Origin: an uncultured Chloroflexia bacterium
GTDB lineage: Bacteria; Chloroflexota; Limnocylindria; Limnocylindrales; CSP1-4
Reading direction: 5' to 3'
Length of the DNA: 64,000 nucleotides
NCBI GenBank assembly: GCA_963771795.1
Contig: CAVYUR010000001.1
Coordinates: 1,880 to 65,879, forward strand
In this document: positions 6,963 through 62,168 of the stretch, piece after piece
Layout of the letters: each line of letters begins with the position of its first letter
Numbering within the stretch: position 1 is the stretch's first letter
The notes under the pieces: generated by a model
The model's input: only the letters and a program-made list of their open reading frames with translations
Database searches by the model: none
What the model was told of the DNA's origin: nothing
Program-made: the position numbers and the translations under genes

Positions 6963-8327
6963 TCAGCCCAAGCCGGGTGGCCTGGTCCCGAGCCTGACCG
7001 ACGTCGTCGAGTGCTCGCCGTCCCTGATGTACTCGACCTCGACCGTCTCGCCGGGCGAGAACTGGGTGAGCAGTGCATCGAGCGGATGCTCCTGGTCGAT
7101 CGCCTTGCCGTTGATCGAGACGAGGATGTCGCCGGTCTTGATCCCGGCGGCGGCGGCCGGACTACCGGCCTTCACCGCATCCTCGTCCGTCGGCTGCTGG
7201 TTCGCATCGAGGATCCGGACGTAGGCGCCGCTGTCTACCGGCAGGTTGAGGTCCTTCGCTCGCTGGCCGTCGATCCGGATGAACTGGATTCCGATATACG
7301 GCCGGGCAAGCGGCTGGCCAGCCACCGACTGCTCCATGAGCGGCTTGGCAAGGTTGATCGGGATCGAGAAGCCGATTCCGGTCGAATCGCGGGCGATCGC
7401 GGTGTTGATCCCGACGACGGCGCCCGTGGCGTCGAGCAGCGGTCCGCCGCTGTTGCCGGGATTGATCGCGGCGTCGGTCTGGATGAGGTTGTTGAGCTGG
7501 CTGCCCTCGGTCTGGATCGTGCGGCCCTTGGCCGACACGATTCCGCTCGTCACGGTATTGGAGAACGTCCCGAGCGGGCTGCCGATCGCGACGACGAGCT
7601 GCCCGACCCGCAGGCCGTCCGAGTCGCCGAGCGCGGCGGCCGTGAGGCCGGTCGCATCGATCTTGACGATCGCGAGATCCGTGAGCGTGTCGATCCCGTA
7701 GACCGTGCCGCTGTACCTCGTGCCGTCCTTCAGCTCGACGGTCACCTGCGTGCTGCCGGCGACGACGTGTCGGTTGGTCAGGATCCAGCCGTTCGAATCG
7801 AAGATCACGCCGGATCCCACGCCCTGCTCCGGGATCGCCGAGGCGGTCGGCTCGATCTCGACACCTGTCGTGATCTGGACGACGGCGGGACCGGCCTTCG
7901 CCGCGACGTCGACGATCGCCGACGACTCGTCGATCGTGATCGGCTGCTTGATGGTGTTCGCATTCGGATCGACGCTCGCCTGTGGCGCGGGACGGTCGAG
8001 CGCCCCTGTTGCGCTCAGGGCGACGACGGTTCCGCCGGAGGCCAGGATCGCGGCCAGGATGGCGCTTCCGAGCACGGTGCCCGCGCCTGCCGAGCGCTTC
8101 GGTGGTGCGACCGGCTCGATCGGAGCGCGCGGCGCGGTCTCGAACCAGCGCTCGGGGGTGGGCGGATGTGGCTCCGGCTGGGTCCAGCGCGGTGCTGCCC
8201 ATTCGGAGCGAGGCTCGGGTGGCGGCGAGAACGACGCGCCGTCGTGCGCCCTTGTCTCGTCTTCGGGGTCGGTATCTCGATGGTCGGTCATGCGATGGTG
8301 GTACTTCGTTCGGCGTGCTGCCGGCAC
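6963..8327 (-). CDS. HtrA/DegP-family (S1C) serine protease with PDZ domain (PepD-like)
   Basis: TNRHVV (His), GNSGGPLLD (Ser), C-terminal PDZ-like GAYV...AAAAGIKTGDILVSINGK, N-terminal TM. Alternative start ATG 8291. Confidence 0.85.
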   Translation of the reverse strand: MPAARRTKYHHRMTDHRDTDPEDETRAHDGASFSPPPEPRSEWAAPRWTQPEPHPPTPERWFETAPRAPIEPVAPPKRSAGAGTVLGSAILAAILASGGTVVALSATGALDRPAPQASVDPNANTIKQPITIDESSAIVDVAAKAGPAVVQITTGVEIEPTASAIPEQGVGSGVIFDSNGWILTNRHVVAGSTQVTVELKDGTRYSGTVYGIDTLTDLAIVKIDATGLTAAALGDSDGLRVGQLVVAIGSPLGTFSNTVTSGIVSAKGRTIQTEGSQLNNLIQTDAAINPGNSGGPLLDATGAVVGINTAIARDSTGIGFSIPINLAKPLMEQSVAGQPLARPYIGIQFIRIDGQRAKDLNLPVDSGAYVRILDANQQPTDEDAVKAGSPAAAAGIKTGDILVSINGKAIDQEHPLDALLTQFSPGETVEVEYIRDGEHSTTSVRLGTRPPGLG

Positions 8328-9766: not shown

Positions 9767-10001
9767 CCGCGCGGCGTCGGTGACGACACGGTCGACGTAT
9801 GTGGCGACAACGCTGGCGCGGGCCTGAAGTTCCGTTTGCTGTTGCTTCGAGAAGTAGTCGTCGAGCCGGTTGACGACGAAGATCGTGACAAGCGCGAGCG
9901 TCAGGGCAACGACGCCGACGAAGCTGAGGGTCAGCCGCGCCTGGAACGTCCGAGGTGCAAGGCCCCGGAGAACGCGACGAATTCGACGACGCCGCGCGAC
10001 G

Positions 10002-11972: not shown

Positions 11973-12790
11973 GGCCGGATCCCGCTCGCATAGACGATCG
12001 GGTAGCGCATCACGAGGTCGTCCGGCGGCATGGCCTCGAGTCGTTCGCGCAGCCCGCTGAGCAGCCGATCACGATCGCGCGCGCGGAGCTCCGAGATCAG
12101 GTCCTCCTCGTCGAATTCGGAGAGGAAGCCGATGTAGCCCTCGACGCTGAAGCGGTGCTCGAGCACCGCCCGCTCGACCTCGACGTGGCGGAATCCGGCG
12201 CGACGAAGCTGGCTCGCGGCCTCCCGATCCGTGCGGACGTCGCCGGGCCGGTCCTCGTGCTCTCGCGCGCCGATGCCGATCTCGTCGAGAAGGGCGTCGA
12301 ACGCCTCGTCGGGCCGGAAGGCGCGATCGTCGACCAGCCACGTGACATAGGCAAGCATCCCGCCCGGATGGACGACCCGGCGCGCTTCGCGGAGCGCCCG
12401 GTAACGGTTCGGAACCAGCTGGAGGACGAACGAGGACATCGCCGCGTCGAACGTGTCGTCCGGGAAGGGCAGGGAGTCGGCCGCTGCGACCCGGGTCGTG
12501 TACTGCTGCCGCTCGGCAGGCGTTAGTAACCGATCCGCCTCCCCTTCGGCGGCCGCGATCATCTCGCTCGACACGTCGATCCCGACGACCTCGACCGTGG
12601 GCCACCGGCGGATCGCCGCCCGGGCGAGCGTGCCGGTTCCCGTGCCGATATCGATCAGCCGCCGCGCGCCGTTCGCGACGGCCCCATCGAGCCGGTCGAG
12701 GAGCGCCGTCGCGCGAGGCTCGAGCACTGGCGCCCACCATTGCGCGTAGCCCTCGGCGATCCGATCGTAGCGTTCGGCCTGGTCGGTCAC
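11969..12790 (-). CDS. Class I SAM-dependent methyltransferase
   Basis: Motif I LIDIGTGTGTLA. Likely GTG 12790 (VTDQAERYDRIAEGYAQWW); the longer ORF start at 12982 looks non-coding. Confidence 0.8.
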   Translation of the reverse strand: MTDQAERYDRIAEGYAQWWAPVLEPRATALLDRLDGAVANGARRLIDIGTGTGTLARAAIRRWPTVEVVGIDVSSEMIAAAEGEADRLLTPAERQQYTTRVAAADSLPFPDDTFDAAMSSFVLQLVPNRYRALREARRVVHPGGMLAYVTWLVDDRAFRPDEAFDALLDEIGIGAREHEDRPGDVRTDREAASQLRRAGFRHVEVERAVLEHRFSVEGYIGFLSEFDEEDLISELRARDRDRLLSGLRERLEAMPPDDLVMRYPIVYASGIRP

Positions 12791-32485: not shown

Positions 32486-35196
32486 GGACTCTCGACGGAT
32501 CCAGTCGGCCGACCCGTCTCCCCGAGGTCGTCGAGTTGCGTTCACAGCTCCCGGCCGGAGTCCTGGCCGTCGGAGAGGACCCGTTGCGGCTCACGTGGCG
32601 CGTGTCAGCTGCCATGGGGGACGAGCAGCTCGCGTACGAGATCGAGACATCGGAGCACCTTGGATTCACCGTCGTGTCGGCTACGTCAGGCATCGTTGAA
32701 AGCGCTGACCAGGTAGCGGTTGCCGCACCCGGCGATCCCATGCGGAGCCGGGAAGTCCGATACCTCCGGGTCCGGATCTCGACGGCGGCCGGCTGGTCCG
32801 TTTGGGGCCCTGTCCTTCGCGCCGAGTCGGGTCTCTTGAAGGCCAGTGATTGGGAGGCCCAGGCGATCACCCTCCCGGACGATCCCGGCGCGGAGCGCCA
32901 GTCGCCATCACCGATCCTGCGGCGGGCGTTCGAGCTCCCGGCCGAAGCCGTCAGCGCGAGGTTGTACGTCACCGCCCTCGGCCTCTACAGGGTGACGATC
33001 AACGGTCGATCCGTTTCCGAGGACCTGCTCGCCCCAGGTTGGACGACGTACCGGCATCGCCTGCTCGCCGACACGTACGACGTCACGTCCTTGCTCCAGG
33101 TCGGTCCCAACGTGATCTGCGGCGTCCTCGGCGATGGCTGGTACCGCGGCCGTCTGGGGTGGGATCGGAAGGGCGACCGCTGCCGCTACGGCCGCGAGGT
33201 CGCCATCCTGGGTCAGCTGGAGATTGAGTTAGCGGACGGCACGACGCAGCGAATTGCCACGGACTCGTCGTGGCGCGCGTCAACTGGAGAGATCCGATCG
33301 GCGGACCTCTATGACGGCTCAGAAATCGACTTCCGTGAGCGCCGAACCGGATGGGAGCTACCTGACTTTGATGCCGGTGACTGGTCTCCGGTGTCGACGG
33401 TTCCGCTCGACGCAGCGCTGATCGAGCCGCGGCTGGCCCCGCCGGTCCGCACCGTGGAGGTCCTGCCCGTCAACCTTGGCCCAGCCCAGGACGGATGTTT
33501 AATTCTTGACGGGGGCCAGAACATCGCCGGTTTCGTTCGGCTTCGCGTCCGTGGCCGACGCGGCGACCAGGTTACCGTCAGGCACGCGGAAATCCTCGAG
33601 CCCGACGGTTCACTCCACACGCGATCGCTGCGATCCGCAAAGGCGACCGACGTCTACCTGCTCGCGGATGACGCGGAGATCGTGCTCGAGCCGGTGTTCA
33701 CGTTCCACGGATTTCGGTACGCTGAGGTGACAACGGAGGCCGAGATACTCGAGGCGCTGTTCGTCGCGATCAGCAGCGACACGCCGCGCCGTGGCGACTT
33801 CGACTGTTCGAATACCGGCCTCAACCGCCTGCACGAGAACGTCGTCTGGTCGCAGCGCGACAATTTCGTATCCGTGCCGACCGACTGTCCCCAGCGCGAC
33901 GAACGGCTCGGGTGGACGGGCGACGCCCAGGCGTTCGCCCCGACCGCCTCCACCCTGTTTGAATCGTCAGCGTTCTGGGCGAGCTGGTTGCGAGACCTCG
34001 CGCTCGATCAGCACGATGAGCTTGGCGTCTCCACGGTTGTGCCGGACGTCGTTCTCAGCGGCGAACCCAGGTACGGGCGCGCTGGCTGGGCAGATGCCGC
34101 GACGATCGTGCCCTGGGCAGTCTACGAGGCAGACGGCGATCCCGACATCCTCCGCCGCCAACTCCCAAGCATGAAGCACTGGGTGGACTCGCTTCGCGGG
34201 AGACAGCAACCCGACAGTCTACTGGGCGCCTCGATGCAGTTCGGTGACTGGCTCGACCCTGACGCGCCGCCCGGCAGGCCTTGGGAGGCGAAGACAGATT
34301 CCGTCTTCCTCTCGAACGCGTTCTTCGCTCAGAGTGCCCGTCTCCTTGCGGATGCGGCGGCGGTGCTCGAGGAGCGGAACCTGGAAACGGAGTACCGGGC
34401 GGTGGCGGATCGGGTGGCGGCGGCGACATGGGCCCGTTGGGGTGACCACGCGATCACGACGCAGACCGGATGTGCCGTCGTACTCCAGTTCGACCTGGCT
34501 CCGCCGTCTCAGGCGAACGCGGTTGCACGGTCCCTAGCGGAACTCGTCCGGACGCAGGCCGGGCGAGTTGCCACGGGCTTCCTCGGCACGCCATTGGTGT
34601 TGCCAGCTCTCGCCGGCAGGGGATGCTTCGACGAGGCCTACCTGATGCTCTTGCGTCGAGAGCTGCCGTCGTGGCTCTACCAGGTCGATCAGGGCGCGAC
34701 CACGATCTGGGAGCGCTGGGACGCGATCCAACCGGACGGCTCGATCCACCCGGGCACCATGACAACCCCGCAGGACATGCCCGAGTCCGAGCCCGGCAAC
34801 GCGCACATGCTCTCGTTCAACCACTACGCCTACGGCGCGGTCATCGACTGGGTCTACCGGCACGTCGCGGGCCTTGCGCCCGTTCGCGAACGGCCGGGCT
34901 ACCGCGAGGTCCTCTTCGCGCCCAAGCCTGCCGTCGGGATCGATTGGGCCCGGGCCTCCGTCGCGTCGGCCTACGGATCCGTGTCGATCGCGTGGCGGAT
35001 CGAGCCAAGCGGGGACCTTGCCGCTGATGTCGAGCTGCCGTTCGGGACATCAGGGTTGTTCGTCGCGCCGACCACGCGCGAGTCCCACGTCGAAGTCGAT
35101 GGCGAGCTCAGCGTCGGCGACGCCCGTCTCGGCCACGGCAGTCACGTCCTGCGCGTCACCAAGCCGCGGATCGCGCGCGCAGCCGCCGCGTCCTAG
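32482..35196 (+). CDS. Alpha-L-rhamnosidase (GH78)
   Basis: GTG 32482 overlaps the permease stop (GTGA). LYVTALGLYRVTINGRSV...APGWTTY, FVSVPTDCPQRDERLGWTGD. Confidence 0.85.
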   Translation: MRTLDGSSRPTRLPEVVELRSQLPAGVLAVGEDPLRLTWRVSAAMGDEQLAYEIETSEHLGFTVVSATSGIVESADQVAVAAPGDPMRSREVRYLRVRISTAAGWSVWGPVLRAESGLLKASDWEAQAITLPDDPGAERQSPSPILRRAFELPAEAVSARLYVTALGLYRVTINGRSVSEDLLAPGWTTYRHRLLADTYDVTSLLQVGPNVICGVLGDGWYRGRLGWDRKGDRCRYGREVAILGQLEIELADGTTQRIATDSSWRASTGEIRSADLYDGSEIDFRERRTGWELPDFDAGDWSPVSTVPLDAALIEPRLAPPVRTVEVLPVNLGPAQDGCLILDGGQNIAGFVRLRVRGRRGDQVTVRHAEILEPDGSLHTRSLRSAKATDVYLLADDAEIVLEPVFTFHGFRYAEVTTEAEILEALFVAISSDTPRRGDFDCSNTGLNRLHENVVWSQRDNFVSVPTDCPQRDERLGWTGDAQAFAPTASTLFESSAFWASWLRDLALDQHDELGVSTVVPDVVLSGEPRYGRAGWADAATIVPWAVYEADGDPDILRRQLPSMKHWVDSLRGRQQPDSLLGASMQFGDWLDPDAPPGRPWEAKTDSVFLSNAFFAQSARLLADAAAVLEERNLETEYRAVADRVAAATWARWGDHAITTQTGCAVVLQFDLAPPSQANAVARSLAELVRTQAGRVATGFLGTPLVLPALAGRGCFDEAYLMLLRRELPSWLYQVDQGATTIWERWDAIQPDGSIHPGTMTTPQDMPESEPGNAHMLSFNHYAYGAVIDWVYRHVAGLAPVRERPGYREVLFAPKPAVGIDWARASVASAYGSVSIAWRIEPSGDLAADVELPFGTSGLFVAPTTRESHVEVDGELSVGDARLGHGSHVLRVTKPRIARAAAAS

Positions 35197-46032: not shown

Positions 46033-46734
46033 CTACGCAGGGCCGGCAGGCGTCGACGACCCCGTCGCGTACGCCTCCAGGCGCCGTGCCAGCTCCGCCG
46101 GCTGACTGAGCATCGGGCAGTGGCCGCTGTCGATCTCGTCCGGGACGATCCCGAGGCGGTCGCGGACGAGACCACGCATCCACTCGGCTGCAAAGAACCG
46201 ATCGTTCCGACACACCAGGAAGGACGTGGGCACGTCAGGCCATGACTCGAGTGGCCAGGGCTCGTTGTACGCGCGATTGGACGGGTGGGCTCGCTCGCGC
46301 CTCATCGCCTCGGCCGCGAGCTCGGGTGGGACGTCGTGGTAGTAGGTCGCGATGTCATCGTCTGGCGCGCCGGCCTCGTGGGGCGGCTGCTCGTAGCCGG
46401 TGTTCGTCCACCAGTCCCTGGGCGCCTCGCCTGGCGCGGGGATCATCGCCGTGACCAGAACAAGAGTATCGACCGCAACCCGCGCACAGATCAGTGGGCC
46501 GGTGAACCCACCAAACGAATGGGCCACGACGACGAGGTTCGTTCGGCCGCCGATCGCTTCGACGGCCGCATCCGTGTACTCCGGTAGGCCGGCCGATTCA
46601 TCGTCGGCTGGGAGGTCGACCGCGACGACATCGTGGCCGTGCTCCCGCAACTCGGCCTCGACAAGGTGCCAGTTCCAGGCCCCGTCGCCGGCGGCATGGA
46701 TCAGAACGAAGGTGGACGACGTGGCAGCAGTCAC
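46033..46734 (-). CDS. Alpha/beta hydrolase
   Basis: GTG 46734 overlaps the TetR stop (GTGA). FVLIHAAG...; nucleophile elbow AHSFGG. Confidence 0.75.
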   Translation of the reverse strand: MTAATSSTFVLIHAAGDGAWNWHLVEAELREHGHDVVAVDLPADDESAGLPEYTDAAVEAIGGRTNLVVVAHSFGGFTGPLICARVAVDTLVLVTAMIPAPGEAPRDWWTNTGYEQPPHEAGAPDDDIATYYHDVPPELAAEAMRRERAHPSNRAYNEPWPLESWPDVPTSFLVCRNDRFFAAEWMRGLVRDRLGIVPDEIDSGHCPMLSQPAELARRLEAYATGSSTPAGPA

Positions 46735-47456
46735 GGGCGGCTGCGCTCCAGCATTCGCTCCAAGCCGAACGTGATCAAGTCGACCGTGTTCCCCCACCAC
46801 TGGTTCGGGTCTGTCAGCCAGACCTCGGCCGTGTCCTCCGCGCTTTCGACCAGGTTCGGGAACTCGTCGCGGGGCAGGCTCATCTGAGCGAGCGCGAAGC
46901 CCCGTCGCATCAGGTCGAGTTGGTGGGGGTCGAGCGGCATCGCATCCGAGGGCAGGCCCTGTTGGAGCAACAGCAGGTAGCCCGCGAGGAGGTTCGATGT
47001 CATGCGGATCAGGATGATCGCGTCTCGCCGCGCAAACCCCGCATCGAGCAAGATGGCCAGGAGTCGCTCGAGCAACTTCCAGAAAGACGGCGGGCCCTCG
47101 GCGTTGTAGGCGATGCTGAGAGGAATAGCAAGAGGACGGGCGTCGATCTGCCGCTTGTAGTTGTCGATCTCCAGGCGCAGCCGCTCGGTCCAGGGCATCC
47201 CCGGTCGAACGCCGGCCGTGGCGTCCATTCCCTCGAGCACGACCTCCGTCATGGCGTTGATGAGGTCCTGCTTGTCGCGAACGTGACGGTAGAGGGCCAT
47301 CGGCGTGACCCTGAACTCCTGCGCGAGGCGACGCAGGCTGACGGCCTCGAGGCCTTCGACGTTGCCGATCTCGATCGCACGGGCCACGACGGCCTCACGG
47401 GTCAGGCCGGGCCGTCCAAGCGCCTGCACGTGCTCTGTGGGGTCCACCGGCTTCAT
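46731..47456 (-). CDS. TetR-family transcriptional regulator
   Basis: ATG 47456. HTH LEAVSLRRLAQEFRVTPMALYRHVRDKQDL. The rest of the 548-aa ORF is antisense to the ABC ATPase gene. Confidence 0.85.
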   Translation of the reverse strand: MKPVDPTEHVQALGRPGLTREAVVARAIEIGNVEGLEAVSLRRLAQEFRVTPMALYRHVRDKQDLINAMTEVVLEGMDATAGVRPGMPWTERLRLEIDNYKRQIDARPLAIPLSIAYNAEGPPSFWKLLERLLAILLDAGFARRDAIILIRMTSNLLAGYLLLLQQGLPSDAMPLDPHQLDLMRRGFALAQMSLPRDEFPNLVESAEDTAEVWLTDPNQWWGNTVDLITFGLERMLERSRP

Positions 47457-47459
47457 CGC

Positions 47460-47510
47460 TTGACAAGTATACGCCGCATACCTAGGCTCTTGTATACGCC
47501 GTATGCGTAC
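47460..47510 (+). promoter_or_regulatory. Divergent TetR/ABC intergenic region: candidate promoter plus repeated GTATACGCCG boxes
   Basis: TTGACA 47460-47465, 17-nt spacer, TAGGCT 47483-47488. GTATACGCCG at 47467-47476 and 47492-47501, the second followed by hairpin TACGC-cgtat-GCGTA. Confidence 0.4.
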
Positions 47511-47568
47511 AGCGGTAACAAGGGCAGAGTCAGCGCCATCAAGACCATCGAGCGAGAGGGAAGCACGG

Positions 47569-48381
47569 ATGACAACTACGCAGATCCAAGGGCCTGCGGT
47601 CCATGTGCAAGGCCTGGAGAAGTCGTACAAGGAGTTGCATGTGTTGCGCGGCGTCGATTTCGATGTGGCCCCGGGCAGCATCTTCGCCCTGCTCGGCTCG
47701 AACGGCGCGGGCAAGACCACGGTCATCAAGATCCTGTCCACGCTGCTCAAGGCTGACGCGGGGACCGCCATCGTCAACGGCTTTGATGTCGCCACGCAGG
47801 CCGCGAACGTCCGGGAGTCCTTCAGTCTCACCGGCCAGTTCGCGGCCGTCGACGAGATCCTCACTGGGCGGGAGAACCTCGTGCTCGTCGCCCGCCTGCG
47901 GCACCTCAAGGAACCGGCCAAGATCGCGGACGAGCTGCTGGAGCGCTTCTCGCTGAGCGACGCCGCGGCGCGTCGGGTGTCGACGTATTCGGGCGGCATG
48001 CGTCGTCGTCTCGACATCGCGATGAGCCTCATCGGAAGTCCGCCGGTCATCTTCCTCGACGAGCCGACGACCGGGCTCGACCCCGAAGGTCGCATCGAGG
48101 TGTGGCAGACCGTCAAGAAGCTCGCCGGGCAGGGAACGACGGTGTTGCTCACGACGCAGCATCTCGAAGAGGCCGAACAGCTCGCCGACCGGATCGCGAT
48201 CCTCCACGAGGGTCGGATCCTCGTGAACGGCACGCTCGCCGAACTCAAGCAGCTCCAGCCGCCCGCCAAGGTCGAATACGTCGAGAAGCAGCCGACCCTC
48301 GAGGACATCTTCCTCACGCTCGTCGGCGGCGGCGGTAACGGCAGAGGCGACGCCCAGGACAGCACCACCGAGAGCAATTGA
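47569..48381 (+). CDS. ABC transporter ATP-binding protein (DrrA-like)
   Basis: ATG 47569. GSNGAGKTT, YSGGMRRRL, IFLDEPTTGLD. Confidence 0.85.
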   Translation: MTTTQIQGPAVHVQGLEKSYKELHVLRGVDFDVAPGSIFALLGSNGAGKTTVIKILSTLLKADAGTAIVNGFDVATQAANVRESFSLTGQFAAVDEILTGRENLVLVARLRHLKEPAKIADELLERFSLSDAAARRVSTYSGGMRRRLDIAMSLIGSPPVIFLDEPTTGLDPEGRIEVWQTVKKLAGQGTTVLLTTQHLEEAEQLADRIAILHEGRILVNGTLAELKQLQPPAKVEYVEKQPTLEDIFLTLVGGGGNGRGDAQDSTTESN

Positions 48382-48387
48382 GGAACG

Positions 48388-49152
48388 ATGATGACTACCT
48401 ACTTCCTTGGCGACACCTTCGTTCTCTTGGGACGATCGCTGCGCCACATTACGCGCAGCCCGGACACCATCATCACAACCGTGATCACGCCGATCGCCAT
48501 GCTGCTGCTGTTCGTCTACGTGTTCGGAGGCGCGATCAATTCCGGGTCGGATTCGTACGTGACCTACCTGTTGCCCGGCATCCTGCTCATCACGATCGCC
48601 TCGGGCATCTCCTACACCGCATTCCGGCTCTTCGGGGATGTGCAGAGCGGCATCTTCGAGCGACTTCAGTCGATGCCGATCGCGCGATCGGGCGTGCTGT
48701 GGGCGCACGTGCTGACATCGCTGGTTGCCAACCTCATCTCGCTCGTGGTCGTTGTGCTCGTCGCCCTGCTCATGGGCTTCCGCTCACCCGCAGGTGTCGA
48801 GGCATGGCTCGCGGTCGCCGGCATCCTGATCCTGTTCACCCTGGCGTTGACGTGGCTCGCCGTCATCGTCGGTCTGACCGCGAAGTCCGTGGACGGAGCG
48901 AGCGCGTTCGCCTATCCGCTCATCTTCCTGCCGTTCATCAGCTCGGCATTCGTGCCCACCGAGACCATGCCCGGCCTGGTGCGCGCCTTCGCCGAGAACC
49001 AGCCGGTGACGGCGATCGTCAACGCAATCCGCGACCTGTTCGCACAGCAGCCGGTCGGCAGCGATATCTGGATCGCGCTCGCCTGGTGTGTCGGCATCCT
49101 CGTCGTCGCGTACGTCTTGGCTATGCGCACCTACCGCCGCAAGATCGCCTAG
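48388..49152 (+). CDS. ABC-2-type transporter permease (DrrB-like)
   Basis: ATG with GAGGA upstream; 6-TM pattern, 254 aa. Confidence 0.8.
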   Translation: MMTTYFLGDTFVLLGRSLRHITRSPDTIITTVITPIAMLLLFVYVFGGAINSGSDSYVTYLLPGILLITIASGISYTAFRLFGDVQSGIFERLQSMPIARSGVLWAHVLTSLVANLISLVVVVLVALLMGFRSPAGVEAWLAVAGILILFTLALTWLAVIVGLTAKSVDGASAFAYPLIFLPFISSAFVPTETMPGLVRAFAENQPVTAIVNAIRDLFAQQPVGSDIWIALAWCVGILVVAYVLAMRTYRRKIA

Positions 49153-49206
49153 CGACACGCTCGCAGCGGAGGCCCGCCCGTCCGCCGTTGACGATCTATT
49201 CACTGG

Positions 49207-52810: not shown

Positions 52811-52817
52811 GAGAGGC

Positions 52818-52892
52818 TGGAGCCGACACTCGGATTTGAACCGAGGACCTGCTGTTTACGAAACAGCTGCTCTACCGCTGAGCTATGTCGGC
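52818..52892 (-). tRNA. tRNA-Thr (anticodon CGU), CCA encoded
   Basis: Hand-folded cloverleaf: GCCGACA-TA-GCTC-AGCGGTA-GAGC-A-GCTGT-TTCGTAA-ACAGC-AGGTC-CTCGG-TTCAAAT-CCGAG-TGTCGGC-T-CCA. Confidence 0.9.
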
Positions 52893-52893
52893 C
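52856..52893. repeat. Direct repeat copy 1 (inside the intact tRNA-Thr, 5' half)
   Basis: ttacgaaacagctgctctaccgctgagctatgtcggcc, identical to 56725-56762. Confidence 0.9.
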
Positions 52894-53379
52894 GGAGCGC
52901 AAGGATAGCCGATGCTCGATGCACAGCAGCTATTCGTACTCAGCGGATCATTCGGCGGACCGTGCTCAGATCGGTAGCACAGCGCTCGAATAGGTGATAA
53001 CTATGAGGACGCGGGGTCGGCACCCTCGCGAAGACCCAGAACGGTCCTTCGATAGGCACCGCTATCCCATCCGATGCCGGCCAGCGACCCGCGCAAACAA
53101 GAATCCCCAAGCATCGGCGGCATCGGAATGGCATCTGACCCAGTGATAGGGACCCCCACGTGCGGACGGCGTTCGAAGAGGCTGGCCGGTGCTGGGCTCG
53201 GGAAGGAGTCGACCTTGCTGACCGGAACCCAACAATTCGTGAGGACAACGCTTGGCAGCTCGAGCTGCGCTGGATACGGGCGCGATCGACCCCGCTGAGG
53301 GAAAGCGTGGGCGATCGTTATCCGACGAAGCCGCGAGTCGGATGAGCGGCCAGCCCGTCAGGAGTGGCGTGTGATTGAG

Positions 53380-54141
53380 CTAAGGCTCCGGTGTGGTCAA
53401 GCGCGGATCAGGGCCGAGCGATGCGTCGCCTGGATCTACAACCATCGTGCCCAGCACGACCGGCTGAGCTGGGACCACCCCCCCGTTAAGCAGGATTCTT
53501 GAACCGACAGGTTCGCGAAGCGGAATGGTAAATAGCCGCGGCAAAGATGCCACGCACCCTGCCGCACCCTCTCCGCCTTGCGGCCGTCCTACCCATGTCG
53601 TGATGGTCACGCTCTTGGTGCCATATGTGATCGATGACTCCAAGAGGGTATGGGCGTCGTCCACCTGGCCGCACTCTGCGAATGTCACGAGGACGTCGAT
53701 GGCAACTGCCCGCGGGTTGGTCGAGGCCGCTAGGTCCCAGTCCGACGCTTGCATAGCTCCGCTCTGGTAGCGTGGCAGGCAGCCGCCCCATGTATCCGCG
53801 ATCCATACTGAATTCTCTCGGCGCATTGCAACCATGCCGAATGGGGCGTCGCGCACCGACGCGGATGAGAGGAACAAGATTTCAGCCGGCGCCTCGGCAA
53901 TTCGGCTCCAGCTCGTGCGCGGCAACTGCGCTGCTGCCGCCTCCCGACTCGCAAGGAATGTCGCGAGGGCCTTTCCCGCCTCGTCGCTCGCTGGATCACC
54001 CGCCGGCTTCGAGAAATCGGATTCGCGGAATTCTGGCCCGGATCCGCAGCTGAGGGCGAGACCTGTAGACGGCCGTGGCGGCGAATTGGCGCAGCTCACC
54101 AGAAGCAGGAGCGATCCAGTGAGCGCAATCAAAACACGCAT
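53380..54141 (-). CDS. Hypothetical lipoprotein (islet cargo)
   Basis: ATG 54141 gives MRVLIALTGSLLLLVSC (lipobox); 253 aa; downstream of the protease on the same strand. Confidence 0.6.
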   Translation of the reverse strand: MRVLIALTGSLLLLVSCANSPPRPSTGLALSCGSGPEFRESDFSKPAGDPASDEAGKALATFLASREAAAAQLPRTSWSRIAEAPAEILFLSSASVRDAPFGMVAMRRENSVWIADTWGGCLPRYQSGAMQASDWDLAASTNPRAVAIDVLVTFAECGQVDDAHTLLESSITYGTKSVTITTWVGRPQGGEGAAGCVASLPRLFTIPLREPVGSRILLNGGVVPAQPVVLGTMVVDPGDASLGPDPRLTTPEP

Positions 54142-54267
54142 GCGATGCTCGGTTAGCAAGACTTCACCCGTTCGGCGCCACAACACACGATGGGGCTCGG
54201 GAGATTGAGACGGTTGGCCGCGGAGTTTAGTTTCTCCCCGGCCAATCAGTCCTTCGCGGTGGGTGTG

Positions 54268-55578
54268 TCAGCTACAGGCTGAGTTCAGGCACAGACGGAG
54301 GAACACCTCGCTCAATGCGACGTCGATCGGACTGTAATAGGTCTTTGTCCCGTCTAGATTCCTCGCGGCAAGGATTCCAAACGCTTGGGGGAGGGTGCCC
54401 GCGATGACGGGCGCCCCACTGTCGCCCGCGACGTGACTCATCGACGCTCTAGTCAGGTTCGTTACCGTCTTGGAGCGGTTATCAACGACGCGCTTGTACG
54501 TCAGGCTGACGCCCTCAATCTCAATCACCCCGCACTTGTAGCCAGGGCTCGAGAAGCTCCCCGAGAAGCAAACGGAATCCCCTGGTCGTTGGTTGGCACC
54601 AGTCTTGATACTCGTGATCGCATAGGCCTTCGAACTGTCATTGATGTAGATCAGGTTTCGGGCACCAGCGTCGTTCTTCAAGGGCGCACTTAACACGTCG
54701 ACAGTCGGGTTTCCAGCTTCGTCCCAAGTGTTCTGATCCACTCCAGGCGCAATGTTTACGACCGAGCCGTTGTGCGAGATGTTCTTGTTGAGTCGCGAGC
54801 AATGACCAGCCTCAACAAGGAACTTTGTAGTACTGGATGTCGTGGGACGTGCGTTAAATCCCCAGGTGCATTGGCCAGAATCCGCCACCGTGCGGGTCCC
54901 ACCACGCCACGGAATTGCGCAGGACAACCGTGAGACACACGCTGAGGCCACGACATCTTGCTGATCGACGAGACTAATGGCACCGCTCTCGACCGAATCA
55001 AAAACAGGCCGGGGCGCCTTCTCGACCATCGCTACTTGGACGCGGTTGGATACGACATCGATCGCAATGAAGTCGATGGTGTCCGGAACTAGGGGCAATA
55101 GCTCTTGACGTATGGCAGCCAGTTCGTTTGTCGCGTATTGGACCTCGCGATATTCAACTGTAGCCGCGGCTGGGAGGAGAGACTGGAATCCGTGCACTAT
55201 TTCCGGCGAAGTCCCGGAAACGACGTTTACGATGAGCAACAGGTCCCCAACGGACTGGTCAAAGAACACACCGCCGAAGTCGCTGGGATGGCTATCGACA
55301 TACGTCAGTGCCTCCTCCATGGCTTCTCGGGTCGTTGAGCGACGCTGAAGCTCCTGGACCTCGGCCGAGCTCAGGACGAGTCCGAATGCCGTGACCTGGC
55401 CTTGGGTGAGCATCGTCTCCACAATTTGCGGGCGAGCGTCGAATCCAAGCTCCTCGCGAAAGCGGACGGCATCCGCGACGCGATCGGCCGAAACGAGCGG
55501 TGTGGCCCCAGCAGCTGGCAGCGGGATCAACAGGGCGACCGAGATCGTCAAACAGAGCAGAAGGCGGCGTGGTGTCAT
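54268..55578 (-). CDS. Secreted S1-family (alpha-lytic/streptogrisin-like) serine protease with N-terminal pro-region (islet cargo)
   Basis: Signal peptide MTPRRLLLCLTISVALLIPLPAAGA. EAGHC (catalytic His), GDSGAP (catalytic Ser), paired cysteines. Confidence 0.75.
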   Translation of the reverse strand: MTPRRLLLCLTISVALLIPLPAAGATPLVSADRVADAVRFREELGFDARPQIVETMLTQGQVTAFGLVLSSAEVQELQRRSTTREAMEEALTYVDSHPSDFGGVFFDQSVGDLLLIVNVVSGTSPEIVHGFQSLLPAAATVEYREVQYATNELAAIRQELLPLVPDTIDFIAIDVVSNRVQVAMVEKAPRPVFDSVESGAISLVDQQDVVASACVSRLSCAIPWRGGTRTVADSGQCTWGFNARPTTSSTTKFLVEAGHCSRLNKNISHNGSVVNIAPGVDQNTWDEAGNPTVDVLSAPLKNDAGARNLIYINDSSKAYAITSIKTGANQRPGDSVCFSGSFSSPGYKCGVIEIEGVSLTYKRVVDNRSKTVTNLTRASMSHVAGDSGAPVIAGTLPQAFGILAARNLDGTKTYYSPIDVALSEVFLRLCLNSACS

Positions 55579-56724
55579 TGATGGTTCTCAACGCATGAGC
55601 CGCAGGCATCCACCTCGGCAAGCCCGGGGAACTCCCTGTGTGGCGCGACCCCTTCCGGAATTGGGCCTCAGATCGCGCAACTGAACTGAACACCGTCGAG
55701 TGGTAGTCGTCGCCATTCGCAGCCACCTCCTCTCGCAGACGCTCGTGGTGCGTCAAGACGCAGGATCCCAGTCGGGCGTCTCTATCGCGTTTGGACCACG
55801 CGTAGACGAAGGAGTGAATCCGCTCTCTTCGCTGAGGAGAACACGCGCTGCCACCCTAGCGCTCACATGTGTGATGACGGCCATTCATGGCCGAGGTCGT
55901 AGAACGGCGCGCCAAGTCGGAGGAACCGCGTGGGCCGGCGAGCTGCCTATGGCCGACCGAAGCCCTTGCCACCCGTCGTGTCGCGAGGCGGTGGTATCGG
56001 GCGCCGAGAGACATCGTCCAGACGGTGCCGTGGACCGCCTTCTAGTGATGCTCCGGAGCCACGGGCTGCCTTCCGGGTCCGCCCCGACATCCGTCGCCGA
56101 CTGACTCAAGGTTGCCCGAGAATGCCGGTCAGCGACGCTCCGCGAGGAGCGTCTTGGCGGTCCGGCGACCGACGTCTGGGCGGCGATCCCGTTCGAAGCC
56201 TTCGACTGGGCACCGTTCGACTAGTTCCGGGTCGCAGCGCTAAGGGTTCGGGTTCGCGCGAGGCGGTGAGGGTTCAGCCAGATGCGCTGGGGCTTGACCA
56301 CGGGCTGATTCCGGGTGACCTCACCATGGTTGGCTTGAGCGCCCGCGGAGCTCCGCGCAAACAGTCATCAGCTCAAATGAGGGTGCAAGCCCCAGGGTCA
56401 TCGGCCGTATGGCCCCGAGCCTCCGGGCACGCGGTCGCGACACGACTTGCAAGTCTCGGCGTTCACGGATCTGCGCGGTTCAGGTTGAGCCGATCGTTCC
56501 CCAATTCTGGCTCCAGATCCTGTCGTCCAAGGGTTTGTTTCGGGACGCAAAGGATGGAACTGACGACCGACTTTTGAGACGATTTCGCGTACTTGGGGTC
56601 AGCTCGGCGGAAGACCGGCCGTAGTGGCGATCCTAGGCGGGCATCCCCTCAAACGAATAGCTGATAAGTGTGTCCGTTTGTATCGGGTCTCCACGCTTGT
56701 AGCACTGCGCATGGGGCTAGAGAC

Positions 56725-56762
56725 TTACGAAACAGCTGCTCTACCGCTGAGCTATGTCGGCC
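56725..56762 (-). repeat. Direct repeat copy 2: orphan 5' half of tRNA-Thr (truncated at the end of the anticodon loop)
   Basis: 38/38 identity to 52856-52893. The sequence beyond the anticodon loop (GTCTCTAGCCCC...) is unrelated to the tRNA 3' half. Confidence 0.9.
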
Positions 56763-56874
56763 CGGACCGGCAGTATAGGCGTTGCCCGGTCGGACGCAGT
56801 CCCAGCCTCGCTCGCATCCATGGGCTCGGCCCGCCAAAAACACCTGTTTCGCGATGGTGGCCACCGTTCAATAA

Positions 56875-57660
56875 TTGCCCGAAATGACGGTCGGCATCAC
56901 GTCGCCAGATGGCATTGCGATCAGGTACGAGGTAGACGGCAGCGGGGCGCCCTCGCTCGTCTTCGTCCATGGCTGGTCGTGCGACCGGACGTACTGGGCG
57001 GCCCAGATGCGCGCCTTCGCTCCCGGCCACCGGGTCGTCGCGATCGACCTTGCCGGCCATGGCGAATCTGGTGACGGCCGCGAATCCTGGACGATGGCCA
57101 CCTTCGGTGGCGACGTGGCCGCGGTCGTGGACGGCCTGGGGCTCGATGACGTCGTGCTCATCGGCCATTCGATGGGCGGCGACGTCATCGTCGAGGCCGC
57201 ACTCGCGCTGGCCGGGCGCGTCCGGGGCATCGTCTGGGTCGACACGTACAGCTCGCTCGACTCCTCGCGTAGCGAAGCGGAGGTCGCCGCGTTCGTCGAG
57301 CCCTTCCAAGCGGACTTCGTAGCCAGGACGCAGCAACTGGTGCGCCGGATGTTTCCGCCGGGCGCCGACCCCGGCCTCGTCGATCGCGTCGCGAGCGGCA
57401 TGTCGTCCGCGCCGCCGGCGATCGCCCGCGACGTTCTGCGGAACGCAATCAGCAACGCGGCGCCGGTGCTGGAACGAATGTCAGCCGTGAACGTCCCGAT
57501 CGTCGCGATCAATCCAGACTATCGGCCGACCGACGAGGCGTCGTTGCGCCGCCACGGCGTACAGCCCGTCCTGATGTCGGGCGTCGGCCACTTCCTGATG
57601 ATGGAAGATCCCGACCAGTTCAACCGTGTGCTGGCCAGGGTCATCCTGGGTCTCGGGTAG
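56875..57660 (+). CDS. Alpha/beta hydrolase
   Basis: LVFVHGW...; nucleophile elbow GHSMGG; alternative start ATG 56884. Confidence 0.8.
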   Translation: MPEMTVGITSPDGIAIRYEVDGSGAPSLVFVHGWSCDRTYWAAQMRAFAPGHRVVAIDLAGHGESGDGRESWTMATFGGDVAAVVDGLGLDDVVLIGHSMGGDVIVEAALALAGRVRGIVWVDTYSSLDSSRSEAEVAAFVEPFQADFVARTQQLVRRMFPPGADPGLVDRVASGMSSAPPAIARDVLRNAISNAAPVLERMSAVNVPIVAINPDYRPTDEASLRRHGVQPVLMSGVGHFLMMEDPDQFNRVLARVILGLG

Positions 57661-58318
57661 CAGTCGCGACTCGGTCACCCGCACGGGTGAACATCACGTG
57701 CGTGACGCCGCTGGGCGCGGAGGTGGCCTCGATTTCGTAGTCCTTCTCGAGGCCCTCCAGCCCGTCCCACAGGCGTACGCCCCGGCCCAGCAGGATCGGA
57801 ACCACCGCGATGTGCATGTGGTCGACGAGCCGTGCAGCGAGGAACTCGCGGATCAAGGTGGCACCCCCGCCGAGACGTACATCCTGGCCGCCCGCAGCCT
57901 CGCGGGCGGTCTCGAGCGCCTCGGCCGGCGAAGCGTCGATGAAGTGGAAGGTCGTGCCGCCCTCCATCTCGATCGGCGGTCGCGGGTGATGGGTGATGAT
58001 GAAGGTCGGTGTGTGGAACGGCGGGTTGGCGCCCCACCAGCCTCTCCATTCCGGGTCCTCGTGCCAACCGGGCGGGCCGAACTTCCCGGCGCCCATGATC
58101 TCGGCGCCGATCCCCGGATCGTGCAGCCGCAGGAAGGCGTCGTCGATGCCGCCGCTGCCGCCGGGCTCGCCGACCTTCTGGCGCCACCACCGGGTGACGA
58201 ACATCCACTCGTGCAGCCGTTCGCCGGCGTGCCCGAACGGTTCCTCGAGGGTCAGGCCTTCGCCGGTGCCGAAACCATCGAGCGAGATCGAAAAGAATTG
58301 GACTAGCGCAAGTGACAT
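57641..58318 (-). CDS. Dihydrofolate-reductase-like (RibD C-terminal domain) family protein
   Basis: FFSISLDGFGTG...GGATLIREFLAARLVDHMHIAVVPILLGRG. Confidence 0.75.
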   Translation of the reverse strand: MSLALVQFFSISLDGFGTGEGLTLEEPFGHAGERLHEWMFVTRWWRQKVGEPGGSGGIDDAFLRLHDPGIGAEIMGAGKFGPPGWHEDPEWRGWWGANPPFHTPTFIITHHPRPPIEMEGGTTFHFIDASPAEALETAREAAGGQDVRLGGGATLIREFLAARLVDHMHIAVVPILLGRGVRLWDGLEGLEKDYEIEATSAPSGVTHVMFTRAGDRVATATRDPG

Positions 58319-61381: not shown

Positions 61382-62168
61382 AATCGAGGACGGCTTCGTT
61401 GAATCTGGCGGGGTCCTGGTAGCTCATGAAGTGGGTCACATCGGGGAGGACCCGAAGGCGGCTTTCCGGAATGCAGCTGGCGAGGACGTCGACGATCCGT
61501 CGCGAGTAGGGCATGCCGTGCTCCGCTCCGAGGGCAAGCGTCGGGGTCGTGATTGCACCGAGTTGCGCGCACGTCACGGGTTGCGGCGCCGGGGCCGCGG
61601 GTCTTGGCACGTCGAAGTTGTCGAGCCACATCCGACGGAGATCCTCGGGCTGGGCGTCGAACGTGCCCGGTCCCCGGTTGTTGACTAGCTCGAACCAGAG
61701 CTTGGCTCTGCGCTCCGCGTCGTCGCCCGCCTCGGCCCGAACGCGGTCGTTCTCGGCCCGCCACCAGGCCAGGGCGGCTTCGCCCTCTGGATCGCCATCC
61801 AGGAGCCACGGAACGTTGGGTTCGATGATCGTCAGACTGCGAACGAGGCTGGGTTCGCGCAGCGTTGCGCGAAGCGCGATCGCCGTGGAGAAGCCGACGA
61901 GGTGAACGGGGCCTGCCGCGAGTCGGTGCATGACGGCAACCAGGTCGGTCGTGTGCGCCTCGGCGGAGTCGTCGCCCGTCGCCGGCCACGGACCGGCTCC
62001 GTGGAACCGGCGGCTATGGGCAATGAACTTGTAGCGCGAGGCGAATGCTTCCCGCTGGGGTTCCCAATATCGGAGATCCGAGCTACCTCCGTGCGAGAAC
62101 ACAACTGGGACTCCGGTGCCCTGCTCCAGGTATTCGAGATCGACTCCGTTCACGCGAACGTGCGTCAC
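61365..62168 (-). CDS. Alpha/beta hydrolase
   Basis: VVFSHGG...; GFSTA nucleophile elbow variant; 4-nt overlap with upstream gene. Confidence 0.75.
   Translation of the reverse strand: MTHVRVNGVDLEYLEQGTGVPVVFSHGGSSDLRYWEPQREAFASRYKFIAHSRRFHGAGPWPATGDDSAEAHTTDLVAVMHRLAAGPVHLVGFSTAIALRATLREPSLVRSLTIIEPNVPWLLDGDPEGEAALAWWRAENDRVRAEAGDDAERRAKLWFELVNNRGPGTFDAQPEDLRRMWLDNFDVPRPAAPAPQPVTCAQLGAITTPTLALGAEHGMPYSRRIVDVLASCIPESRLRVLPDVTHFMSYQDPARFNEAVLDFIGQS

Follow-up and report, generated by a model that had tools for sequence, protein, structure and literature searches.

How does a bacterial genome come to carry an intact tRNA gene at one edge of a compositionally foreign segment, a second copy of the 5' half of that gene at the other edge, and no integrase gene in between? 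Integration at the 3' ends of tRNA genes is near-universal and lets an element restore the gene without supplying a promoter, and reversed cases are regarded as rare curiosities. The question is raised by a 3.8-kb segment (positions 52894-56724; hereafter the islet) within a 64-kb stretch of contig CAVYUR010000001.1 (hereafter the window), which separates a tRNA-Thr(CGU) gene from a displaced copy of its own 5' half. We report that a family of Xer-like tyrosine integrases of the Chloroflexota is encoded next to the 5' ends of tRNA genes, that complete elements of this family carry a 5'-half copy of the tRNA gene at their far ends, and that the islet has the arm motifs of the family and lacks its integrase. 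The islet is very probably a non-autonomous, integrase-less derivative, resembling the cis-mobilizable elements (CIMEs), of a small element of this reversed-polarity family.

Exactly one tRNA gene was identified in the window, a tRNA-Thr(CGU) on the minus strand at positions 52818-52892, which both ARAGORN and Rfam (tRNA model, 72.6 bits) recognize as intact, as the initial annotation of this DNA had stated. A repeat search also bore out the perfect 38-bp copy of its 5' half described there: a direct repeat of 38 nt, on the minus strand, occupies positions 52856-52893 (the left copy, within the gene, corresponding to the integrase-proximal att site) and 56725-56762 (the right copy), with a spacing of 3869 nt. 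Read on the tRNA strand, the repeat comprises 1 nt of upstream sequence and tRNA positions 1-37, and so ends with the final nucleotide of the anticodon loop (TTCGTAA). Identity ends at the loop/stem boundary, as had been proposed, the following base being A in the gene and G in the copy. The right copy is an orphan 5' half in which no tRNA is called; ARAGORN, Rfam and a similarity search of the window detected no 3' half beside position 56725 and hence no complete second tRNA. No further tRNA-like fragment was found in the 64 kb apart from a 13-nt match to the tRNA 3' half at positions 33017-33029, which was considered as the att site of an island of normal polarity and rejected as a chance match.

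The DNA between the repeats differs in composition from its surroundings. The guanine-plus-cytosine (GC) content of positions 52894-56724 is 61.5%, while the window averages 68.3% and FtsX, the adjacent gene, 72.3%. Among all 3.8-kb stretches of the 64 kb, GC content is lowest at the islet, the minimum beginning at position 52901. The shift is real and is bounded by the repeats. Its size had been overestimated, given that the 60-nt lines of the islet range from 48 to 73% GC (mean 61%) rather than from 50 to 53%, and the depression amounts to approximately 7 percentage points, not 20. GC content at third codon positions (GC3) is 0.67-0.68 in the two genes carried by the islet versus 0.79-0.88 in flanking genes.

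Homologues of FtsX put the host in the Limnocylindria-type Chloroflexota, and related contigs place an integrase at the same position. In the contig designated L001, in which FtsX is 82% identical at the protein level, PadR-ABC-FtsX-tRNA-Thr is common to the contig and the window, with 80% of nucleotides identical as far as the 5' end of the tRNA; the tRNA itself is 100% identical, and a gene encoding a 318-aa tyrosine integrase starts 117 nt from the 5' end of tRNA-Thr and is transcribed away from it. A further contig (P0002; FtsX 87% identical) has a plus-strand gene at the same offset from FtsX, as judged from gene position only. The closest relative, L003, displays 92% nucleotide identity over PadR-ABC-FtsX and loses homology exactly at the FtsX stop codon (L003 position 3801); neither L003 nor L004 has a tRNA gene after FtsX, and a scan of genome contigs with the FtsX protein returned no relatives. 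From the other side of the islet, the hydrolase gene (87% identical) leads to L134, which carries an uninterrupted tRNA-Thr(CGU), again 100% identical to that of the window, 2.2 kb from the hydrolase and among other neighbouring genes. Positions 7799-7853 of L134 (the 5' half of tRNA-Thr and 18 nt of upstream flank) match window positions 56725-56779 over 55 nt at 94.5%. Judged by this match, the displaced 5' fragment keeps a host-like upstream flank, and positions 56763-56779 (minus strand) represent the native upstream flank of the original tRNA gene.

The L001 integrase was scanned against metagenome and genome contigs, blind to tRNA genes, and approximately 125 loci were recovered. Among integrases at least 45% identical to that of L001, 52 loci abut the 5' end of a tRNA gene and 3 abut a 3' end. 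In the 52 reversed loci the two genes diverge, the tRNA 5' end being situated upstream of the integrase start by 86-157 nt, and roughly 19 tRNA species (counted as distinct anticodons) are targeted; the rest of the scanned loci are mostly contigs cut at the tRNA. More distant integrases, several if not most of them actinomycete, show 8 loci of normal polarity versus 2 reversed. In a neighbour-joining tree the reversed loci fall into a single clade, the outgroup being of normal polarity, and target specificity tracks the subclades, with two normal-polarity exceptions nested within. Together with the integrase at the 5' end of the same tRNA-Thr in L001 and the complete elements described below, these counts support the suggestion in the initial annotation that a duplicated 5' half implies integration with opposite polarity. 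A tRNA gene in normal orientation was seen at L025 (9791-9866), L045 (726-800) and L106 (9783-9858), beside integrases 48-55% identical to that of L001, those of L025 and L045 nesting in the reversed clade; these may be secondary reversions of polarity or coincidental neighbouring tRNA genes.

The family integrase (318 aa) shares with the simple tyrosine recombinases XerC, XerD and XerA a SAM-like N-terminal domain and a catalytic domain, and matches the models of all three. XerA (5hxy) and XerD (1a0p) are the solved structures closest to it, and its closest counterparts among phage integrases share 34-37% identity with it. It differs from these Xer recombinases in that it scores far below the XerC/XerD equivalog cut-offs (158 bits versus 335), and in that its genes are found at tRNA 5' ends in islets of variable cargo, not at dif-type housekeeping loci. 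Family cargo includes DNA methylases, GmrSD, a RelA/SpoT-domain protein, a GIY-YIG protein and a STAND/BTAD regulator, with a Rep-like protein in L015. Thr-type loci are homologous to one another only across tRNA, arm and integrase gene, and the similarity ends with the stop codon of the integrase. A scan of viral contigs for the tRNA 5' half gave no match.

Four loci hold both ends of an element, and in each the integrase lies beside the intact tRNA gene with a 5'-half copy at the far end. These include two Gly-CCC elements, one of 5.3 kb repeating tRNA positions 1-40 (L014) and one of 7.3 kb repeating positions 1-37 (L015), a Val-GAC element of 7.3 kb repeating positions 1-41 (L101), and an Arg-CCT element of 6.6 kb repeating positions 3-42 at 87.5% identity (L110). 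The ends of these repeats (tRNA positions 37-42) agree with the end of the repeat in the window, and the geometry of the window is thus the norm for the family.

The integrase itself is missing. No integrase, excisionase or transposase was found among all open reading frames (ORFs) of the window using Pfam, PHROGs and NCBIfam, tblastn gave no match to the L001 integrase in the islet, and a hidden Markov model built from 34 family integrases detected neither an integrase nor a remnant of one in six-frame translations of the islet or of the whole 64 kb. The reported lack of recombinase ORFs therefore withstood every search, and because the family integrase is absent from the window, the islet is classed as a derivative rather than as an autonomous member.

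Family membership can nevertheless be approached through the arms. Between tRNA and integrase gene, family elements have an arm of 90-150 nt with a conserved layout, in which site 1 lies at approximately +17 to +20 from the tRNA 5' end (e.g. ACAGCTGATAAC) and site 2 at approximately +55 to +71. A promoter-like element (TTGACN-17/18-NATNNT) facing the integrase gene is present in 17 of 48 distinct arms, its -10 overlapped by site 2. Integrase-ward sigma-70-like promoters of this kind (TTGACG, a spacer of 17-18 nt, and GATGAT, GATAAT or TATAAC) were observed at L001 positions 12487-12516 and in the equivalent arms of L005, L015, L017, L092 and others. The coincidence of the -10 with site 2 would permit autoregulation by a site-binding protein. 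From one subfamily to another sites 1 and 2 change together, and in several subfamilies the two sites of an arm are identical at 12-13 of 14 positions, which argues for recognition by an element-encoded protein, and on the basis of these patterns we infer that the arm motifs are protein-binding sites.

Both ends of the islet carry such motifs. The integrase-proximal arm (P arm; positions 52894-53003, plus strand) has motif copies at 52925-52936 (minus strand) and 52987-53000 (plus strand). When aligned with seven integrase-bearing tRNA-Thr loci, positions 52976-53003 (CACAGCGCTCGAATAGGTGATAACTATG) share 23 of 28 identities with the block of Thr-type arms that contains the integrase promoter and site 2. 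With this match the arm has the conserved block of the family, (CAC)A(A/G)CGCTCGAATAGnTGAT, within approximately 100 nt of the tRNA 5' end. In the window the -35 of the 52976-53003 block is degenerate (TCGGTA versus TTGACG in the family), and no integrase gene follows it. The far arm (P' arm; positions 56615-56724, plus strand) carries a motif copy, CGAATAGCTGATAA, at 56654-56667, which starts 71 nt from the element end; the corresponding distance is 77 nt in L014, 70 nt in L015, 79 nt in L101 and 72 nt in L110. The best 14-nt match between the P and P' arms of the window, 52987-53000 against 56654-56667, has 13 of 14 identities; the same comparison for the four complete elements, over their final 110 nt, gave best matches of 11-13 of 14. 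With family arm motifs kept and the integrase gone, the description of the islet as an unusual or decayed element proved apt. Elsewhere in the family, L007 (3307-3460) has a tRNA-Arg(CCG)-like gene on the minus strand 30 nt past the stop codon of a Thr-type integrase, followed by a P-arm-like block, CACAACGCTCGAAGAGCGTAGAAC, with no integrase in the next 1 kb, and may be a second integrase-less or a nested arrangement.

By linking repeat geometry, arm architecture and family polarity, we offer the following scheme for the origin of the islet. Family integrases would recombine in the anticodon loop of the tRNA gene with reversed polarity, the attP of the element carrying the tRNA 5' half (positions 1 to approximately 37-41) together with upstream sequence. 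Integration would join this element-borne 5' half to the 3' half of the host gene, giving an intact hybrid tRNA gene (52818-52892) beside the usual position of the integrase, and would displace the host's own 5' half and promoter to the far end, where they would persist as the orphan at 56725-56762. The crossover must fall inside the left repeat copy (52856-52893), most likely in the anticodon loop. Recombination of this kind predicts that the orphan keeps the host upstream flank, and the match to L134 agrees. In the copy found in the window the integrase gene would then have been lost, leaving two recognizable att arms and a foreign cargo of a protease and a lipoprotein, and the islet may still be excisable by a cognate integrase acting in trans.

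An exchange of this type would also affect transcription. A -10-like TATACT (minus strand, 56772-56777) lies 10 nt upstream of the orphan half, within the flank that matches L134, and a weaker -10-like TATCCT (minus strand, 52902-52907) lies in islet DNA 9 nt upstream of the intact tRNA gene. From the placement of these motifs it is plausible that transcription of the intact tRNA now starts at a promoter brought in by the element. The orphaned native promoter (TATACT) points through the 5'-half fragment into the islet, in the same orientation as the cargo genes, which begin approximately 1.1 kb downstream, and expression of the cargo by read-through from it is conceivable. A terminator scan of the region gave no match, and Rfam recognized the tRNA alone.

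While repeat, arms and polarity converge, several points weigh against assigning the islet to this family. Neither an integrase nor a pseudogene remnant lies within it, and membership rests on short arm motifs and on geometry. The first ~60 nt of its P arm do not align with site 1 of Thr-type elements, and its P' arm was compared with those of Gly, Val and Arg elements only, the far ends of Thr-type elements lying beyond the 10-kb flanks. The pattern CGAATAGSTGMT occurs three times in the 64 kb, in every case no more than approximately 100 nt from an islet end, against a chance expectation of zero. This figure overstates the significance, since the sites were already known when the pattern was drawn up; the alignment to the family and the constant position of the sites provide stronger, independent support than this count. 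A strict sigma-70 promoter scan of the region returned no promoter, and the element-borne tRNA promoter is thus putative. Finally, a true empty site was not found in close relatives: the arrangement anticipated by the initial annotation, with tRNA-Thr directly beside the hydrolase, did not appear, L003 having no tRNA gene after FtsX and the best proxy, L134, having different flanking genes.

The alternative that survives best accepts the same origin and differs from the derivative proposed above only on present-day function. According to it the islet is a dead relic, its integrase deleted in situ, its arms decaying, and the whole fixed and immobile, an outcome to which we assign somewhat less than an even chance. 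Decay is suggested by the degenerate -35 of the integrase promoter, by a P-arm site 1 that is unrecognizable in the orientation used by the family, and by approximately 1.5 kb of gene-less DNA, and no family integrase is found in the 64-kb window to mobilize the islet. A recent event, on the other hand, is suggested by an orphan half that is under no selection and is still 100% identical over 38 bp, by a cargo whose composition shows no drift toward the host's, and by P and P' motif copies that are still 13/14 identical at the position typical of the family; moreover, a trans-acting integrase could lie outside the window.

It is far harder to sustain that an element of normal polarity (i.e. 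one duplicating the 3' half), or a pair of tandem tRNA-Thr genes, was rearranged or truncated so as to leave a 5' half by chance, and we regard this as very unlikely. Normal-polarity elements do occur at tRNA sites in this group, and the neighbourhood has been rearranged between relatives. Such a deletion, however, must end exactly at the loop/stem boundary, as do the repeats of four complete reversed elements, and must leave no 3'-half fragment in the window beyond the 13-nt chance match at 33017-33029; it must further coincide with foreign composition bounded exactly by the repeats and with family arm motifs at both islet ends. The normal-polarity elements referred to were observed at L091 (Thr-CGU; 366-412 and 9786-9860) and L022 (Arg-UCU; 991-1046 and 7574-7649), where one tRNA gene is used from both sides: a repeat of 45-56 nt of the tRNA 3' part bounds an island of approximately 6.5-9.4 kb on the 3' side, and a reversed-family integrase abuts the 5' end. 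Least probable of all is a chimeric mis-join at the repeated tRNA sequence of a metagenome-assembled contig. In its favour, the source is apparently an uncultured Chloroflexota genome, and this tRNA is where many related contigs end. Against it, an erroneous join within a shared tRNA leaves a single intact gene, not an intact gene together with half of one attached at the loop boundary to unrelated sequence; the architecture is seen again in four independent assemblies; and typical final assembly k-mers are longer than 38 bp.

The cargo of the islet consists of two genes, both on the minus strand. The first (54268-55578; GC 58%, GC3 0.67) encodes a 436-aa serine protease of the S1 family, secreted and of the alpha-lytic/streptogrisin type; it has a signal peptide, an N-terminal pro-region and a C-terminal S1 domain bearing the motifs EAGHC and GDSGAP. 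No Pfam, NCBIfam or PHROGs model matched it, and the assignment follows from these motifs and from a sequence search of the PDB, in which residues 230-430 matched 2pfe, 2oua, 2ea3 and alpha-lytic protease, and in which 3m7t was likewise among the matches. Only 6 homologues were found in 5.8 billion proteins, the best at 57-58% identity and one named 'S1 family peptidase' by its source. Their neighbourhoods are unrelated, and the cargo is consequently not traceable to a known element.

The second gene (53380-54141; GC3 0.68), taken from the ORF list, encodes a putative lipoprotein of 253 aa with the lipobox LLVSC, which matched no known family in Pfam, NCBIfam or PHROGs. A homologue of it lies directly downstream of the protease homologue in L133, a Nocardioidaceae metagenome-assembled genome (MAG) contig (1767-3951), at 38% amino acid identity (E 6e-45) for the lipoprotein and 57% for the protease, and this shared adjacency indicates a conserved two-gene cassette. 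The lipoprotein might, speculatively, be a cognate inhibitor or immunity partner of the protease. The gene-less DNA of the islet (52894-53379 and 55579-56650; approximately 1.5 kb) contains no ORF with a coding signature or family match. Its larger part, some 1 kb at positions 55579-56614, has no credible gene: its ORFs lack a coding GC3 pattern, Pfam and PHROGs were negative, and no integrase remnant is present. Presumably this part is DNA of the element, either decayed or non-coding.

Several observations concern the neighbourhood. The tRNA 3' end lies only 7 nt past the FtsX stop codon (window position 52811). A second, milder low-GC stretch (46700-49200; 62-66%) containing TetR, ABC-transporter and ABC-2 permease genes lies upstream of PadR and is absent at the equivalent position of L001. 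The tRNA neighbourhood is heavily rearranged between relatives. A RibD_C-domain gene located directly to the left of PadR-ABC-FtsX in L001 (7978-8625) is found to the right of the islet and hydrolase in the window (57641-58318), at 78% nucleotide identity and in the same orientation, and an abhydrolase gene of L134 (9170-9903) matches window positions 61411-62144 in inverted orientation.

How does the islet compare with known systems? Williams in 2002 reportedly defined an anticodon-loop class of tRNA-targeting tyrosine integrases (with sites of the phage P22, HP1 and pSAM2 type). The islet resembles this class in that its identity block stops at or within the 7-nt anticodon loop, its relatives have a tyrosine recombinase beside the att site, and the islands are small and compositionally foreign. 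It differs in that the usual members duplicate the sequence from the loop to the 3' end, whereas in the window and the family the duplicated part reaches from the loop to the 5' end and a further 1-5 nt upstream. Zhao and Williams, also in 2002, are said to have described an element that recombines with the 5'-distal part of a tRNA gene, duplicating a 5' segment and having to restore the 5' part. The islet is like that element, as reported, in duplicating the tRNA 5' segment; it is unlike it in that the copy in the window has no integrase, and in that theirs was a single exception whereas the relatives of the islet form a large Chloroflexota clade in which reversal is the rule across approximately 19 tRNA species. 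Recombination with the 5'-distal part of tRNA genes has been called 'considerably less frequent' than with the 3'-distal part, the Zhao and Williams report and a few archaeal cases being cited (PMC6563490).

CIMEs are cis-mobilizable elements that lack integration and transfer genes and keep attL and attR (PMC5704250). The islet is similarly flanked by both att sites, carries no recombination or transfer genes, and has related autonomous elements at the same site. It differs in that CIMEs were described for derivatives of ICEs (integrative and conjugative elements) or IMEs (integrative and mobilizable elements) among Firmicutes at the 3' ends of genes, whereas the parent elements of the islet are islets of 5-7 kb consisting of integrase and cargo with no recognizable conjugation module; mobilization of the islet would be by analogy with these systems. 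Given that 5'-distal recombination and integrase-less, att-flanked remnants are both known, the islet itself is a further case of a known, uncommon kind. The integrase clade in which reversal is the rule (approximately 19 tRNA species, in Chloroflexota) appears not to have been described as yet, with the proviso that the literature search was not exhaustive.

The reversal at the level of the family, more than the islet, carries most of the interest. We propose, only tentatively, a wider picture in which these Xer-like integrases would form an as yet undescribed clade that spans the phylum Chloroflexota, has some representatives in Actinomycetota MAGs and has switched wholesale to the 5' half of tRNA genes (52 of 55 loci, approximately 19 species). 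Each integration would then swap the promoter of a host tRNA for an element-borne one and leave a strong, orphaned host promoter facing the element, the arm motifs would couple recombination, integrase autoregulation and tRNA expression, and integrase-less islets such as the present one would be trans-mobilizable cassettes. Island finders keyed to 3' tRNA fragments or to an integrase would miss both the boundaries of the family and islets of this kind. With reversal apparently the norm in one integrase lineage for many tRNA targets, within a phylum that has been little studied, the family offers a natural system for the determination of att-site polarity, the takeover of essential tRNA transcription by an element, and the persistence of cassettes that have lost their integrase.

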